From contig CBDDPY010000002.1 in the NCBI GenBank assembly GCA_965232515.1, positions 5,344,001-5,408,000 of the forward strand: a stretch of DNA of 64,000 bases. The letters run 5' to 3'. Source of the DNA: Alphaproteobacteria bacterium. GTDB taxonomy: Bacteria > Pseudomonadota > Alphaproteobacteria > GCA-2731375. The first letter of the stretch is position 1; each line of letters begins with the position of its first letter. The notes under the pieces are model-generated. The model did not search any database, was not told where the DNA came from, and saw nothing but the letters and a program-made list of their open reading frames with translations. Below are positions 58,921-63,999 of the stretch, in pieces. The position numbers and the translations under genes are program-made.

Positions 58921-59960
58921 GCCCTGAGTTCACAAACGAAGTGCAACACCTTGTGTTGGAGGTGTTGCGATGGGATCCGATTACGCCCAGTTGTCACTGG
59001 AAGAGCGGTGTGAGATTTCCCGCCTTCAAACCGCCGGCCGCTCGATCCGGCAAATCGCGGCAGCTCTGGATCGCGCGCCATCAACAGTCTCTCGCGAACT
59101 GAAACGCAACAGCGGCCGACAGGTCGGCTACAAGCCAGCCTATGCCCAGCAGCAGGCCCGCGCCCGGCGCTGGTCCGGGCCCCGCCTGCAACGCGATCCG
59201 AGCTTGCGCGACCGCGTCCTCGACGGCCTCAAACGCGGCTGGTCGCCGGAACAGGTCGCCGGCCGGCTCGCCCACACCGCCGGCCAACACGTCATCTCGC
59301 ATGAAAGCATCTACCGCTTCGTCTATGCCCAGCTCGCCCGCACCCAGGACTTCCGCTGGCGCCTGCTGCTGCCGCGCGGCAAAAGCAAACGCGGCTGGCG
59401 CGGCCGCAGGGGCGGCAGCCCGGCCAGCTTCATCGCCGGCCGCGTGCCCATCGCCGATCGCCCGGCCGACGTCGACGACCGCACAACCCCGGGACACTGG
59501 GAAGCCGACCTCATGCTGTTCGCGACCTACGGCCAGGCCATCCTCGTCTGCCATGAACGTCTCTCCCGCATCCTCCTCGCCACCCGGCCACCGGGTAAGG
59601 CCGCACAGCCCATCGCAGACCACCTGCACGCCCTGTTCGCCGACCTGCCGCCCGACCTGCGCCAGACCGTCACCTTCGACAACGGCACCGAATTCGCCCG
59701 CCACACCGAACTCCAGCACATCGACATGCAAACCTACTTCTGCGACCCCCATGCCCCCTGGCAGAAGGGCGGCATCGAAAACGCCATCGGCCGCTTCCGA
59801 CGCTTCATCCCCCGAAAGACAAACCTCGACGAGCTCAACCGCCGGCGCCTGCACCAATACCTGCGCGCCTACAACACCACGCCGCGGAAATGCCTTGACT
59901 ACAGAACCCCAGCCGAGGTCTTCATCGAACACCTGTTGCACTTCGAATGTGAATCCACCT
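58921..59960 (+). mobile_element. IS30 family insertion sequence
   Basis: Inverted repeats ttcacaaacgaagtgcaaca (58929-58948) and tgttgcacttcgaatgtgaa (59934-59953), 18/20 match; exact ends uncertain by a few nt. Confidence 0.9.
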
Positions 59961-59980
59961 CCTGGCCTGCGCCAGGATGA
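58970..59980 (+). CDS. IS30 family transposase
   Basis: STVSRELKRN, WSPEQ, GHWEAD, TFDNGTEF, PWQKGGIEN, PRKCLDY. Confidence 0.96.
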   Translation: MGSDYAQLSLEERCEISRLQTAGRSIRQIAAALDRAPSTVSRELKRNSGRQVGYKPAYAQQQARARRWSGPRLQRDPSLRDRVLDGLKRGWSPEQVAGRLAHTAGQHVISHESIYRFVYAQLARTQDFRWRLLLPRGKSKRGWRGRRGGSPASFIAGRVPIADRPADVDDRTTPGHWEADLMLFATYGQAILVCHERLSRILLATRPPGKAAQPIADHLHALFADLPPDLRQTVTFDNGTEFARHTELQHIDMQTYFCDPHAPWQKGGIENAIGRFRRFIPRKTNLDELNRRRLHQYLRAYNTTPRKCLDYRTPAEVFIEHLLHFECESTSWPAPG

Positions 59981-60007: not shown

Positions 60008-60781
60008 TTAGCTAGCCCCGGCCTTGCTCAGCGCCTTCGCGACCTGCTTGATCTGGTGGCCGACGGAGACCGGCATCATCGAGGTGATCTCCAGGTCGCG
60101 GTCCTCGTAGGCGTCGGCCTCGGTATGCTTCCGCCGCCAGTCTTCGATGGCTGCGTCGCGCTGGTGCAGCAGCTGCTCGATCTGCGGCCGGAACAGCACC
60201 AGCATAGCCGTGACCCAACGGTTAGTCGGCCATGACGGCCAGGCATGGTCCATGGCGAAACGGTCGAGCAGCCGGATCACGTCGTCGGCTTCATAGAAAG
60301 ACTCGCCCGTGACCCAGCGGTTGGTCGTGAACAGGTGGGTCGGGAAGCCTTTCTTGTCCATCGAGATCGCGATGAGATGGCTGAGGCGTTCGTCGCCCGT
60401 CGGCCACTCGGCCTCACCGTCGTAGGCGACGGGATCGACGCCGGACGGCATGCCCTTCTGGCGCAGAAACGTATGGAAATGGCCGTGCTCGCCCTGTGCG
60501 CCGCGATGGGCGTGATAGTAGTACTGCGAGTGGGTCTCTTTGTCGTAGACATCGCCCTCGGGATAATGGTCCCACTCATAGAAGGTGCCCTGTCCCTTCA
60601 GCACCTCGCCGACGATGTTGGCGTCCACCTTGGTCAATACCCGATAGCACTCGAGCACTTCCTCGCCGGCCTGCCGCATCGCCGTCAGGCGCGCGACCGA
60701 CAGCTCGTCGAAGAGGGATCTCGGCCGGCTCTTGGCCGCCCCGGTCTCGTTCGCCTGCACGATTTCGATCTGTCCTTCCAT
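60008..60781 (-). CDS. His-rich conserved hypothetical protein (DUF6969-like)
   Basis: WDHYP..DVYD, YYYHAHR, EHGHFHTF, LFTTNRWVTGE; TGATG coupling to the upstream gene. Confidence 0.7.
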   Translation of the reverse strand: MEGQIEIVQANETGAAKSRPRSLFDELSVARLTAMRQAGEEVLECYRVLTKVDANIVGEVLKGQGTFYEWDHYPEGDVYDKETHSQYYYHAHRGAQGEHGHFHTFLRQKGMPSGVDPVAYDGEAEWPTGDERLSHLIAISMDKKGFPTHLFTTNRWVTGESFYEADDVIRLLDRFAMDHAWPSWPTNRWVTAMLVLFRPQIEQLLHQRDAAIEDWRRKHTEADAYEDRDLEITSMMPVSVGHQIKQVAKALSKAGAS

Positions 60782-61632
60782 CACTCCCTCACCAACCTGA
60801 ACCCGATAAGAATATGTTTCAAGGCCTCGGGGCGGGAATGCCGGGCCGCGGGCCGGCAGACGCCGCAGCCGCTGTCGTCCCAGGAACCGCCCTTGACCGT
60901 GTAACGGCCGGCGCCCGCCGCGGTCGCGGTCCACTCGAACACCTGACCGGCCGCGTCGAGCAGGCCGAAGGGACTGGCGCCGTCGGGAAAGCTGCCGACC
61001 GGCATGGTGTCGAAGGGACCGGCGTCGTGGCTGTTCAGCCTCGCCGGTGTGAAGACATCGCCCCAGGGAAAACGCCGCCCGTCCACGCCGCGTGCCGCTT
61101 TCTCCCACTCCGTCTCGCTCGGCAGCCGCCAGGTTTGCCCGGTGCGTTCTGACAGCCAGGCCGCATAGTCCCGCGCGTCGGCGTGGCTGACCAGCACGAC
61201 CGGATGGTCGGCCCGACCCGCCGGCGGTCGGCCGTTTTGCCAGGCGTGACGCCGCGTCCGCTCGAAGGGATGGATCAGGCCATAGCCTTGCCAGACATCG
61301 GGCTGGACATCCGGCGCGCGGTGGCCGGTTTCGGCCACGAAGGCCGCGTACTGGGCATTGGTGATCGGCGTTCGGGTGATCGCGAAGGCTTCCGTCGTGG
61401 CGGTCGCACGAGCCGCCTCGCGGTCGTACCACTTCCACTGCCGGGTCCGAGTGTGTCCGTAAGCCTGCTCGTCCAGGCGATAGCCGGCCTCGCGTTCGAA
61501 GCTGTCGGAACCCATGACGAACGGGCCCGCTGGCACCTCGACCACCGCCGGAATCCCATCGTCGGCCAATGAAGCTCCAGCAAGGCCCAGGCCCAAGATC
61601 ATCAATGCCGGCAAATATCCGCGCACCCGCAA
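60781..61632 (-). CDS. Formylglycine-generating enzyme (SUMF1/FGE-sulfatase) family protein, secreted
   Basis: HPVVLVS, RLPSETEWEKAARG, GQVFEW, KGGSW, CGVCR, IGFRL; start uncertain. Confidence 0.9.
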   Translation of the reverse strand: MRVRGYLPALMILGLGLAGASLADDGIPAVVEVPAGPFVMGSDSFEREAGYRLDEQAYGHTRTRQWKWYDREAARATATTEAFAITRTPITNAQYAAFVAETGHRAPDVQPDVWQGYGLIHPFERTRRHAWQNGRPPAGRADHPVVLVSHADARDYAAWLSERTGQTWRLPSETEWEKAARGVDGRRFPWGDVFTPARLNSHDAGPFDTMPVGSFPDGASPFGLLDAAGQVFEWTATAAGAGRYTVKGGSWDDSGCGVCRPAARHSRPEALKHILIGFRLVRE

Positions 61633-61810
61633 TACCCTTGTTTACACATCGGGCCCAAATCCATCGGCGGCCCGTTCTAAGTATAGGAAGCATCGGCCGT
61701 GCTGCATCGCAGCATCACAGACTGTTGAGTGAACTTGACTGGTCTGCCGGGGGCAAACGTAGTCCCCTTAAACGACCAGAAAATCACAAGTTCTGACAGG
61801 AGGCCGGCTC

Positions 61811-63247
61811 ATGCGAGCCCATCGATCAAAACTGCTTTCAACGACTGTTATCCATATGTGTTTCGGTGCCGGCCTTGCCGCGGGTAGCGCCCTGGCGATG
61901 GCGCAAGCGGCGACGGCGGCGGGCACGACGACTGGGCTTGCCAATCCCGATGCCGTCGCCAAACCGACGGCCGGTCTGATCCGCCTCGCGGCCTGCAATC
62001 CGTGCGCGGCCAAGGCATGTAATCCCTGCGCCGCCAAGGCCTGTAATCCTTGTGCGGCGAAGGCTTGCAACCCGTGTGCCGCCAAGGCCTGCAATCCCTG
62101 TGCGGCGAAGGCGTGCAACCCCTGCGCGGCCAAAGCCTGCAACCCGTGCAGTCCGTGTGCGGCCAAGGCTTGCAATCCATGCAATCCCTGCCGTGCGGCG
62201 GCGGCTTGTAATCCCTGCAACCCGTGCAATCCCTGCAACCCGTGCGCGGGCGGTGCGGCTTCGGTCTCGGCCAAGTGTCAGGTGCCGCGCCTGGTGACAG
62301 CGGCGCTGTGCAACCCGTGCGCGGCCAAGGCCTGCAACCCCTGTGCGGCGAAGGCGTGCAATCCTTGCGCCGCGAAAGCCTGTAACCCGTGTGCCGCAAA
62401 GGCCTGCAACCCTTGCGCTGCCAAGGCCTGTAACCCCTGCGCGGCCAAAGCTTGCAACCCGTGCGCCGCGAAGGCGTGCAATCCATGTGCAGCCAAGGCC
62501 TGCAACCCTTGCGCCGCGAAGGCCTGCAACCCGTGTGCGGCCAAGGCCTGCAATCCGTGCCGCGTGGCCAAGGCCTGCAATCCCTGCGCGGCCAAAGCTT
62601 GCAACCCGTGCAATCCGTGTGCGGCCAAGAAGGCCTGCAATCCGTGCAACCCCTGCGCGGCCAAGGCCTGCAACCCCTGCAATCCGTGTGCGGCAAATGC
62701 CTGCAATCCTTGCAACCCGTGCGGACCTTGCGGCGCGGCCGAGGCGCCGGAGCTGAGCACCGCCGAAGTGCGGGCGGCCTACGACTGCCTGCGCGGCGAG
62801 ATGGTCGCGGGCTATGCCAAGTCGGGCATGCAGACCGCCAGCTTCTACAAGGACTGGGCGATCTACAACTCCCAGCCCTACGTCTCCGACACGCATGGCG
62901 GCCGGTTCGTCAACAACTACACCAATGTCGTCGGCAGCCAGAAGTACGGCAAGTACGAGGACGCCGGCCGCATGCCGGTGGGCGCGATGATGGCGAAGGA
63001 CAGCTTCGTCGTGCGCCCGGACGGCAAGATGGCCTCGGGTCCGTTGTTCCTCATGGAGAAGATGCCGGCCGGCTTCAACAAGGAAAGCGGCAACTGGCGC
63101 TACACCATGGTCATGGCGGACGGCGCCGTGTTCGGCACCACCAACGGCCAGGGCTCGAACAACGTGAAGTTCTGCATCGAATGCCACGCGGCGGTGGCGG
63201 AAGATCAGGACAGCGTGTTCTTCCTGCCGGAGGAGTATCGGAACTAG
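61811..63247 (+). CDS. Cytochrome P460-family protein with a long Cys-rich (CNPCAAKA)n N-terminal region
   Basis: AGGAGG RBS, signal-like N-terminus, repeats, then [29 protein letters not shown] and CIECH near the C-terminus. Confidence 0.82.
61994..62731 (+). repeat. Coding 24-nt tandem repeats (CNPCAAKA) in two blocks
   Basis: 6 perfect peptide units from 61994 and 10 from 62309, followed by NPC expansions; third codon positions vary. Confidence 0.95.
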
Positions 63248-63301
63248 TTGGCGGTTCGGGCGGCTGGATGTACCGGCCGCCCGCCCTGCCGATCACGGGA
63301 G

Positions 63302-63328
63302 AAAGCGGCGTTTCGACGCCGCTTTTTT
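63302..63328 (+). terminator. Rho-independent terminator
   Basis: aaagcggcgt-ttcg-acgccgcttt with T run. Confidence 0.85.
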
Positions 63329-63390
63329 CATTGTCGACGGCGCGGGACAGGTAGACTTCGTCGAACCAAACAACAGACGAGGCCGATGCC

Positions 63391-63999
63391 GTGGCGACTG
63401 TGACGTTCTATTTCGACTGTTCCAGCCCCTGGACCTATCTGGGCTTTCATCGTTTTCTGCCGCTCGCCGACGAACTTGGCGTGACCGTCGACTGGCGGCC
63501 GATCCTGGTTGGCGGCGTGTTCAACACGGTCAATCCCAGCGTCTATCAGAGCCGCGAGAACCCGGTCCCGGCGAAGCAGGCCTATATGCTCAAGGACCTG
63601 CAGGACTGGGCCCGCTTTACCGGTATCGAGATCGTCTGGCCGCCCGGCATCTTTCCGATCAACAGCGTCAAGGCCATGCGCGGCTGCATCCACGCCGACC
63701 GGCAGGGCCGCCTGGTGCCGTTCGCGACGGCGGTGTTCGAGGCCTATTGGGGCGCCGATCGCGATATCGCCAACGAGGCCGTGTTGTCCGAGCTCGCGAC
63801 GACGGCCGGGCTCGATGCCGACGCGTTGCTGGCGGCCATCGCGTCGCCCGACATCAAACAGGCGCTGCGCGAGAACACCGACGAACTGATCGGGCGCGGC
63901 GGCTTCGGCACGCCGACGATCTTCATCGACGACGATATGTATTTCGGCAACGACCGCCTGCCGCTGATCCGCGCCGCGCTTGAACGCGCGGCCGCTTGA
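63391..63999 (+). CDS. 2-hydroxychromene-2-carboxylate isomerase / DsbA-like (GST-kappa) protein
   Basis: FYFDCSSPWTY, WRPILVGG, GGFGTPT, FGNDRL. Confidence 0.9.
   Translation: MATVTFYFDCSSPWTYLGFHRFLPLADELGVTVDWRPILVGGVFNTVNPSVYQSRENPVPAKQAYMLKDLQDWARFTGIEIVWPPGIFPINSVKAMRGCIHADRQGRLVPFATAVFEAYWGADRDIANEAVLSELATTAGLDADALLAAIASPDIKQALRENTDELIGRGGFGTPTIFIDDDMYFGNDRLPLIRAALERAAA

Follow-up and report, generated by a model that had tools for sequence, protein, structure and literature searches.

A portable Asn-Pro-Cys repeat module, found on a P460-type haem protein, probably marks an undescribed cysteine-based periplasmic system

In 64,000 nucleotides of DNA from an alphaproteobacterium (contig CBDDPY010000002.1, positions 5,344,001 to 5,408,000; hereafter the window), we analysed a gene whose product joins two arrays of Asn-Pro-Cys (NPC) repeats to a haem domain of the P460 type. 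Judging from sequence comparisons, the NPC repeat is a portable module, carried by the P460 subfamily to which this protein belongs, by a SoxA/TsdA-type cytochrome c, and by small stand-alone secreted proteins. Because the module travels in this way, onto another haem enzyme family and into proteins of its own, it probably marks an undescribed cysteine-based periplasmic system. In Alphaproteobacteria, the module co-occurs with the family DUF6969 and, in a subset, also with a secreted protein resembling FGE (hereafter FGE-like) that has a conserved CxxC.

The gene occupies an open reading frame (ORF) on the forward strand (61811..63247), which starts with ATG and codes for 478 aa plus a stop. 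Its product, a Cys-repeat P460-type haem protein, begins with a signal peptide, followed by two NPC repeat blocks and by a C-terminal P460/c'-beta haem domain:

61811..63247, + strand: coding sequence (CDS) of the Cys-repeat P460-type haem protein (ORF list, translation, motif counts)
61811..61903, + strand: Sec-type signal peptide, residues 1-31 (sequence reading, no predictor)
61994..62248, + strand: repeat block 1, residues 62-146, with 6 perfect CNPCAAKA units, then NPC expansions (Tandem Repeats Finder, motif count)
62249..62308, + strand: conserved linker, residues 147-166, with a KCxVPRL element (alignment of relatives)
62309..62731, + strand: repeat block 2, residues 167-307, with 10 consecutive perfect units and variants (Tandem Repeats Finder, motif count)
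62735..63244, + strand: P460/c'-beta superfamily haem domain, residues 309-478 (PF16694, AF2 model, Foldseek, VIA-align)
62996..62998, + strand: codon of K396, at the P460 haem cross-link lysine position (profile alignment)
63056..63058, + strand: codon of E416, in the column of the distal carboxylate Glu96 of N. europaea P460 (one weak profile alignment)
63173..63187, + strand: haem c attachment site CIECH, residues 455-459; no other CxxCH exists in the protein (motif search)

The signal peptide, as read by eye, has a basic N-region, a hydrophobic core, and Ala-Met-Ala ahead of the likely cleavage site; it holds neither a twin-arginine motif nor a lipobox, and its 12-residue N-terminal motif is found again in relatives. 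The gene product is thus predicted to be a Sec-exported periplasmic protein. The KCxVPRL element of the linker is present in repeat-less relatives too, and its Cys may be paired with the Cys of a YDC helix.

About 250 N-terminal residues consist of two unstructured-looking arrays of NPC units (about 30 units). Of the 65 cysteines of the protein, 61 lie within residues 62-307, i.e., in a 246-aa span with 25% Cys, which confirms the count of about 61 in about 245 aa given by a first-pass annotation of this DNA. The remainder of the span is made up of Ala (75), Pro (36), Asn (34), and Lys (23); a further 17 positions are V, S, R, G, L, Q, or T, and there is no aromatic, His, or acidic residue (no F, W, Y, H). 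The motif count also bore out the description of two blocks with 6 and 10 consecutive perfect CNPCAAKA units together with NPC expansions: there are 18 perfect units, of which 6 follow one another starting at residue 62, 10 do so starting at residue 167, and two stand singly at residues 256 and 279. NPC occurs 33 times in the region, and CxxC, counted with overlaps, 36 times. At the DNA level, Tandem Repeats Finder delimits two arrays of period 24, at 61990-62149 (6.7 copies, 80% matches) and at 62309-62611 (12.5 copies, 78% matches). None of the repeat CxxC motifs precedes a His, as had been noted, the sole CxxCH being at residue 455. CxP motifs number 35 in the protein, and the full C-x-P-x-R, which we take to be the target motif of FGE, occurs only twice, at residues 124 and 247. 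One point of the first-pass annotation, which spoke of repeat CxxC motifs, calls for correction: CxxC is not the essential unit. Relatives use one Cys per unit (NPCAAK, NPCAAKTL), which makes Asn-Pro-Cys the core motif. Scanned alone, the repeat module has no family match in Pfam or NCBIfam, and no metallothionein family was matched in these scans. The only match of the whole protein in both collections was Cornifin, which is of low complexity and was rejected as spurious.

The DNA of the repeats behaves very differently from their peptide. The 18 perfect units are all distinct in DNA (18/18), with every one of the 8 third codon positions variable and 0 of the 16 first or second positions variable (i.e., 0, 0, and 8 variable sites at codon positions 1, 2, and 3). 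The mean pairwise DNA identity of the units is 0.824, to be compared with 0.827 +/- 0.010 for random synonymous codon draws, and adjacent units are the least alike (0.786). Since only third positions vary and the identity equals that of a random synonymous draw, the peptide has been held constant while the identity of the DNA repeats has been fully lost. We infer that the repeats are under protein-level selection. Both the shuffling of third positions over an invariant peptide and selection on the protein had been proposed beforehand; the first is confirmed by these counts, and the second is supported by them and by the strain differences given below, of which 10 out of 11 are synonymous.

Such a repetitive stretch could be an assembly artefact, or untranslated low-complexity DNA, all the more as no single short-read contig spans the gene. 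This possibility, which the first-pass annotation had named as what would refute it, was examined with the contigs of two public runs (X1 and X3), which tile 61600-63350 with 0 differences (X1: 61600-62069, 62041-62663, and 62636-63350; X3: 62041-62863), X1 being possibly the source sample and none of the contigs spanning the whole of it. Together with the uniqueness of all 18 units in DNA, the confinement of their variation to third codon positions, and the 339 homologs that share the layout (see below), this agreement argues that the array is no artefact, an explanation to which we give almost no credence. A near-identical strain is represented by contigs in an RNA library (X4), whose presence there is not proof of transcription; a polyA RNA run under the same species label (X22) contributed no reads. 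Its CDS carries 11 differences, 10 of them synonymous, and the sole nonsynonymous one, S114N, turns a CSPC into a CNPC.

The C-terminal part of the protein, residues 309-478, is a P460/c'-beta-type c-haem domain with its cross-link lysine position occupied. Submitted alone, these residues match PF16694 (E 4.2e-09, 37.3 bits for a cut-off of 27); the Pfam scan of the whole protein returned no PF16694 match because the repeats dominate it. The single haem-domain sequence had no match among solved structures and a profile was needed. A 69-sequence profile retrieves solved c'-beta and P460 proteins. The AlphaFold2 (AF2) model of the domain is confident (predicted local distance difference test, pLDDT, 96.5). 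Every one of the 19 Foldseek hits to it at E<=0.001 is a P460 or c'-beta protein, and VIA-align gives Z scores of 13.0 (7ead), 12.8 (9hrk), and 8.7-8.9 (2je2, 8gar), the best unrelated chain scoring 5.1. Hence Pfam, the profile search against solved structures, and the fold all support the P460-type assignment made in the first-pass annotation. The late CxxCH that it had pointed out is CIECH (residues 455-459), which is invariant in 69/69 family members. The lysine of GAMMAKDSF, which it had placed at the P460 cross-link position, is K396, and this placement is supported as well: K396 aligns with Lys78 of M. capsulatus P460 (9hrk/6hiu) and with Lys70 of N. europaea P460 (8gar), the cross-link lysines as numbered in Table 2 of PMC11928373 (available part). 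A Lys stands at this position in 62/69 family members, and in the profile alignment the column is occupied by Phe61 in 7ead and by Met79 in 7s5o, which are c'-beta proteins. The distal carboxylate that NH2OH oxidation requires is Glu96 in NeP460 and Asp102 in McP460, according to the available text of PMC11928373. E416 aligns with this Glu96 in one weak profile alignment (E 0.0018), and the alignment with McP460 places Asp102 within an insertion. E416, conserved as Glu in 61/69 family members, is a putative counterpart of the catalytic carboxylate, standing roughly where that residue would be.

The haem domain has many relatives. A query with it matched 339 proteins of 262-837 residues, with Cys repeats in 14/14 of those inspected, and an exhaustive search of cluster representatives found 651 relatives, many of them of about 200-240 residues without repeats. 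The repeats themselves vary: besides CNPC, relatives use CGAC units, acidic DPC units, and single-Cys units such as NPCAK, and the number of perfect units differs among near relatives, i.e., 18 in this gene, then 16 and 14. We sampled 401 genomes of the class, including this one, and the 29 best hits of the P460 subfamily outside this genome all have a cysteine-rich extension. Elsewhere, this genome encodes a paralogue of the haem domain that lacks repeats (40% identity; G000:C2:640827-641315, locus L017). Among the ORFs within 1.5 kb on either side of it, inspection by eye, without a family scan, showed neither an FGE-like nor a DUF6969 gene. In four other proteins (P0144, P0189, P0244, and P0268), a haem domain of the P460 subfamily lies C-terminal to an adenylate/guanylate cyclase, caspase, or TIR domain. 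These fusions suggest that the haem domain is able to serve as an extracytoplasmic ligand sensor.

The module was found again outside the P460 fold. A search with the repeat region returned 768 proteins, and the best 120 of these 768 hits comprise 86 P460-type proteins and 34 SoxA/TsdA-type monohaem proteins whose domain is flanked on either side by NPC repeats (classified by motif and by eye); for 29 of the best 120 hits, PF21342 stands in the precomputed Pfam column. In metagenome loci of this second family (L117-L132), the repeats are present in 16/16. Proteins of these loci, and likewise P0272, P0273, P0283, and P0311, are secreted and have conserved PYPHxVAM and MV[NQ]FC[ML] motifs in the SoxA/TsdA-type domain, which may hold the axial ligands. 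A multihaem cytochrome adjoins 4 of the 6 SoxA/TsdA-type loci whose neighbours were scanned, and a redoxin adjoins one SoxA-type locus. The module also exists alone. In three further loci (L002, L003, and L004), one more small gene lies between the FGE-like and the P460 genes. It codes for a secreted NPC-repeat protein that has no haem domain and shares its signal-peptide motif with the fused protein.

The survey of repeat number and neighbours in homologs, which the first-pass annotation had put forward as a check, was carried out on 15 related loci from a species-representative genome collection, 10 of them repeat-bearing and testable, 3 repeat-less, and 2 cut off upstream. The FGE-like and DUF6969 genes are adjacent in 10/10 testable repeat-bearing loci and in 0/3 repeat-less loci, DUF6969 having moved to the other side in 2 of the 10. 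We then have the counts in the 401 genomes, in which relatedness is ignored: DUF6969 is found over its cut-off in 90/401 genomes (one of them, G240, flagged as unpublished), the P460 subfamily in 58/401, at least 3 NPCAAK-coding patterns in 38/401 (a reversed control pattern gave only single hits), and the FGE-like ortholog in 33/401. DUF6969 is present in 37 of the 38 NPC-rich genomes, versus 53 of the 363 others. Genomes with the FGE-like ortholog hold DUF6969 in 32/33 cases and the P460 subfamily in 28/33. All of the sampled genomes with a repeat-bearing P460 also have DUF6969 (29/29), at a distance of at most 3 kb in 15 of them. Of 40 DUF6969 loci retrieved with 6 kb on each side, 10 have a small stand-alone secreted protein of NPC repeats nearby, in varied orientations, and 3 have the fused P460 form; more generally, an xPC-repeat ORF is within reach of DUF6969 in 25 of the 54 genomes examined. 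A YeeE/YedE sulfur-transport gene (Sulf_transp) lies within 6 kb in 7/55 loci. Neighbour clustering around DUF6969 is blurred by alternative-frame ORFs in GC-rich DNA, and its only stand-outs are the FGE-like gene, the NPC proteins, and Sulf_transp. We also considered that the presence of the FGE-like gene might track CNPC-type (i.e., CxP) arms; this was not upheld, CNPC arms occurring in genomes without an FGE-like ortholog.

In the window, the two partner genes lie upstream, on the opposite strand, and a hairpin follows the haem protein gene:

60781..61632, - strand: secreted FGE-sulfatase-family protein, 283 aa, divergent (PF03781, E 5.8e-47)
60008..60781, - strand: DUF6969 protein, 257 aa, no signal peptide (PF22308, E 1e-89)
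61633..61810, no strand: shared divergent intergenic region (alignment of 8 loci)
63298..63329, + strand: terminator-like hairpin with a U-run, about 50 nt past the stop (folding, -22.1 kcal/mol, z -4.97)

The start of DUF6969 overlaps the stop of the FGE-like gene (ATGA). In the FGE-like protein, a C-terminal GCG[VI]C pair is kept in 31/32 ortholog tails (some of the loci coming from one genome). Its closest solved relative is ToxD, all its NCBIfam hits are far below the cut-offs, and the alignments listed for its C-terminal 90 aa against the Protein Data Bank (PDB) are to ToxD, SUMF2, EgtB, and PorK, with no true FGE among them. Its cysteines are spaced as CxxC and those of true FGEs presumably more widely, a comparison made without residue-by-residue alignment. 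An analogy with the ToxC/ToxD pair (toxoflavin) was dropped, since ToxD is no more than the closest structure solved. In DUF6969, seven His/Glu residues are invariant (H72, H90, H92, E98, H101, H103, and H135), and its model is confident (pLDDT 90.3). No PDB structure matches its fold with E<=0.001 in Foldseek, the best VIA-align Z among 48,161 chains is 3.7, and in the ESM Atlas it matches only DUF6969 clusters.

The intergenic region contains a dyad, TCAC-N6/7-(G/T)TGA, at about 61715-61729, with invariant columns T83 C84 A85 C86 and T94 G95 A96. It is common to 8 loci (the window, L001, L005, L006, and L009-L012) whose proteins are only 52-95% identical, and we regard it as a candidate operator. 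A consensus scan for promoters and terminators found 0 of either, and the hairpin at 63298-63329 is absent from its list because the U-run pairs into the stem. The family scan of the five neighbours identified, besides FGE-sulfatase and DUF6969, an IS30-type transposase, PhyH, and a DSBA-like protein, and the rest of the 20 kb scanned around the locus is ordinary metabolism. The IS30-type transposase gene (HTH_38 and rve; 58970-59980, + strand) abuts the FGE-like/DUF6969 operon, with the 3' end of DUF6969 on one side of it and PhyH on the other. These two genes are immediate neighbours in L001, a close relative, and the element therefore looks like a recent insertion. The DSBA-like thioredoxin-fold gene (63391-63999, + strand) lies downstream and runs past the end of the window, with no signal peptide seen; copies are found adjacent in L001 (92% identical) and 1.4-4.8 kb downstream in three other loci (31-32% identical). 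Neither at the locus nor in the 20 kb scanned is there any copper, metal-resistance, or metal-handling gene, and no sulfatase gene lies among the neighbours or in these 20 kb. MNIO (DUF692) and DUF2063 have no match among the five neighbours scanned, and no genome-wide DUF692 search was made.

Taken together, the shared module and its DUF6969 and FGE-like context favour two of the functions imagined in the first-pass annotation, i.e., a thiol/S-nitroso/polysulfide buffer and a substrate for modification, over a plain metallothionein, which is made less favoured by the presence of the module on a SoxA/TsdA-type haem protein, by the stand-alone peptides, and by the ties to DUF6969 and the FGE-like protein. 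Our preferred reading, held tentatively and as something short of probable, is that the array is a multiplied carrier-cysteine arm, an acceptor for whatever is oxidised by the low-potential haem joined to it (sulfur species or NO+). By analogy with the swinging arm of SoxY, the arms would be carrier cysteines, multiplied many times, and would act as tethered nucleophiles for an attached open-pocket, low-potential haem. The haem would oxidise a small substrate, and the electrophilic oxidised intermediate would be captured on an arm thiolate. A SoxA-type haem would leave sulfane sulfur or a thiosulfonate on cysteine. With a P460-type haem, a haem-bound NO+ equivalent would be captured as an S-nitrosothiol, or possibly sulfur would be captured instead. 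The arm would thereby serve as acceptor and buffer, and the periplasmic FGE-like protein and the cytoplasmic DUF6969 protein would load, unload, re-reduce, or chemically mature its cysteines. Two precedents support such a carrier arm: SoxXA couples thiosulfate to the SoxY cysteine (PMC6335251, available part), and the {FeNO}6 intermediate of P460 is attacked by a nucleophile (PMC11928373, available part). Moreover, single-Cys units suffice in many relatives, which fits a carrier, while a CxxC chelate or disulfide needs more. The fold and key residues of the haem domain, selection on the repeat peptide, the presence of the module on two unrelated haem families, and the partner genes also count in its favour, as does the link to sulfur given by YeeE/YedE in 7/55 loci.

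Several observations weigh against the carrier arm. A search of the window's entire genome gave no match to SoxY (PF13501), this genome holds no copper nitrite reductase (NirK), and its sole Sulf_transp gene is at a distance of about 153 kb. A catalytic carrier needs far fewer than thirty to sixty cysteines. The periplasm is oxidising and CxxC pairs tend there towards disulfides, and the known chemistry of P460 is that of nitrogen, not of sulfur. The fusions of the haem domain to cyclase, caspase, and TIR domains suggest sensing rather than catalysis. As for the partners, neither DUF6969 nor the FGE-like gene nor YeeE lies beside the SoxA/TsdA-type repeat proteins (0/16 loci by tblastn, many flanks being short), which indicates that they are not universal. 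Among the genomes examined for an xPC ORF, 29/54 have none near DUF6969, and 53 of the 90 DUF6969 genomes lack the at least 3 NPCAAK patterns. The loci with YeeE nearby are a minority, and the co-occurrence counts, as said, take no account of relatedness. Extending the carrier arm to a general principle is possible, if doubtful: it would be a new type of carrier, a poly-cysteine swinging arm acting as built-in acceptor for periplasmic haem enzymes of at least two unrelated folds and matured or serviced, in Alphaproteobacteria, by DUF6969, as a metalloprotein whose fold matched no solved structure, and by a copper-type FGE-like enzyme.

The same cysteines could form a periplasmic metallothionein-like sponge, whose thiolates would bind Cu(I), Hg, Cd, or Zn, with the FGE-like and DUF6969 proteins handling or sensing the metal. 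Its composition speaks for such a sponge, i.e., 25% Cys over residues 62-307, richness in Lys, Ala, Asn, and Pro, no aromatics, and 36 CxxC motifs, and the partners would suit it: the FGE-like protein belongs to a copper-thiolate enzyme fold and keeps its two C-terminal-loop cysteines in 31/32 tails, DUF6969 has its seven invariant His/Glu residues, and bufferins are secreted Cys peptides that buffer copper (PMC11626156, available part). However, the locus and the 20 kb scanned offer no copper or metal-resistance gene, the scans returned no metallothionein family, only the low-complexity Cornifin, and a sponge leaves unexplained both the fusion of the module to two kinds of catalytic haem domain and its sulfur-transport and multihaem neighbours. 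We thus consider the sponge unlikely. It seems to us equally unlikely that the array is chiefly a repeated substrate for cysteine modification, by DUF6969 in the cytoplasm before Sec export, in a bufferin-like manner, and by the FGE-like protein in the periplasm, the modified groups being the working parts. CNPC holds the C-x-P core of the FGE recognition motif and a conversion of Cys to formylglycine could be imagined, with 35 CxP and 2 full CxPxR motifs in the protein. Two enzyme-like partners, whose genes overlap, are conserved next to or alongside the repeats, and one of them, DUF6969, combines an invariant His/Glu cluster and a confident model with a fold that neither Foldseek nor VIA-align matched. 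Sec-signal precursors modified on Cys before export also provide a precedent (PMC11626156, available part). On the other hand, single-Cys NPCAAK arms have no CxP, and CNPC-type arms often occur without an FGE-like ortholog in the genome (20/38 NPC-rich genomes). The CxxC spacing of the FGE-like protein is unlike the wider one that we assume for true FGEs, and ToxD, its closest solved relative, acts on a small molecule. DUF6969 was not found beside the SoxA-type repeat proteins, nor MNIO or DUF2063 among the neighbours scanned.

Still less probable, in our judgement, is a redox or structural tail, in which CxxC disulfides would be an electron sink or source for a very low-potential haem, or in which the array would be a flexible envelope spacer or tether stapled by disulfides, while the haem domain would act mainly as a ligand sensor. 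P460 haem potentials of -300 to -430 mV (Table 3 of PMC11928373, available part), the C-terminal position of the haem domain in cyclase, caspase, and TIR proteins, and the redoxin that adjoins one SoxA-type locus are all in line with it. Against it, one-Cys units are incapable of intra-unit disulfides, and the conservation of Asn-Pro before every Cys, like the dedicated partner genes, would be superfluous for a spacer.

P460 cytochromes have been studied for hydroxylamine oxidation and for the release of NO and N2O. A large marine subfamily with tens of tethered thiols near the haem would change the products and the partners expected of the P460 fold. The module, found on P460, on a SoxA/TsdA-type cytochrome, and as free peptides, and tied to DUF6969, constitutes a testable and apparently unstudied periplasmic system, and it would give a first opening for learning what DUF6969 and one FGE-like branch do. 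In the literature searched (supplements not covered), there was nothing on DUF6969, on a P460 with cysteine repeats, or on CNPC repeats. If the carrier arm is true, it would be an unrecognised periplasmic cysteine chemistry (a sulfur/NO relay or a new Cys modification) that is widespread in marine bacteria.

Among known systems, metallothioneins resemble the array by their composition, in which Cys makes up about 25% and is accompanied by Lys, Ala, Asn, and Pro, aromatics are lacking, and CxxC motifs are many. In contrast, the array has no metallothionein family match, and it is secreted and fused to a haem domain. Its regular NPC unit, sometimes with a single Cys, also differs from the CxC/CC patterns that we take to be typical of metallothioneins. 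Aerobic FGE (with the CxPxR sulfatase motif) and the FGE-like neighbour have PF03781 in common, and the two conserved cysteines in the C-terminal loop of the neighbour may correspond to the pair of FGE, but the neighbour is set apart by NCBIfam hits far below the cut-offs, by ToxD as best solved relative, by its CxxC spacing, and by the lack of a nearby sulfatase gene. Closer in organisation are the bufferins (BufA with MNIO/DUF692 and DUF2063), which are likewise Sec-signal Cys proteins, with periplasmic products, encoded beside a cytoplasmic metalloenzyme of formerly unknown function (PMC11626156, available part). Their precursor families and enzymes are others, however, the partners here being DUF6969 and the FGE-like protein, with no MNIO among the neighbours scanned. 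With P460 (N. europaea 2je2/2je3, M. capsulatus 6hiu/9hrk; PF16694) and c'-beta, the protein shares the fold (VIA-align Z 8.7-13.0), a CxxCH near the C-terminus, and periplasmic export, and the Lys at the cross-link position is a P460 feature. It differs from them by a sequence identity of only 17-21%, by an extra N-terminal helical segment, and by the about 250 residues of NPC repeats, which are not described for any P460 in the available part of PMC11928373 or in the literature searched. Compared with SoxY, there is no homology, tens of Cys replace one, and carrier and haem are fused, so that the likeness is functional only; nor does the window locus have SoxB, SoxCD, or SoxZ. It is nonetheless in SoxYZ/SoxXA that a Cys on a flexible peptide accepts a sulfur substrate via a c-type haem enzyme (PMC6335251, available part), and it is a SoxA/TsdA-type cytochrome domain that carries the same NPC module.

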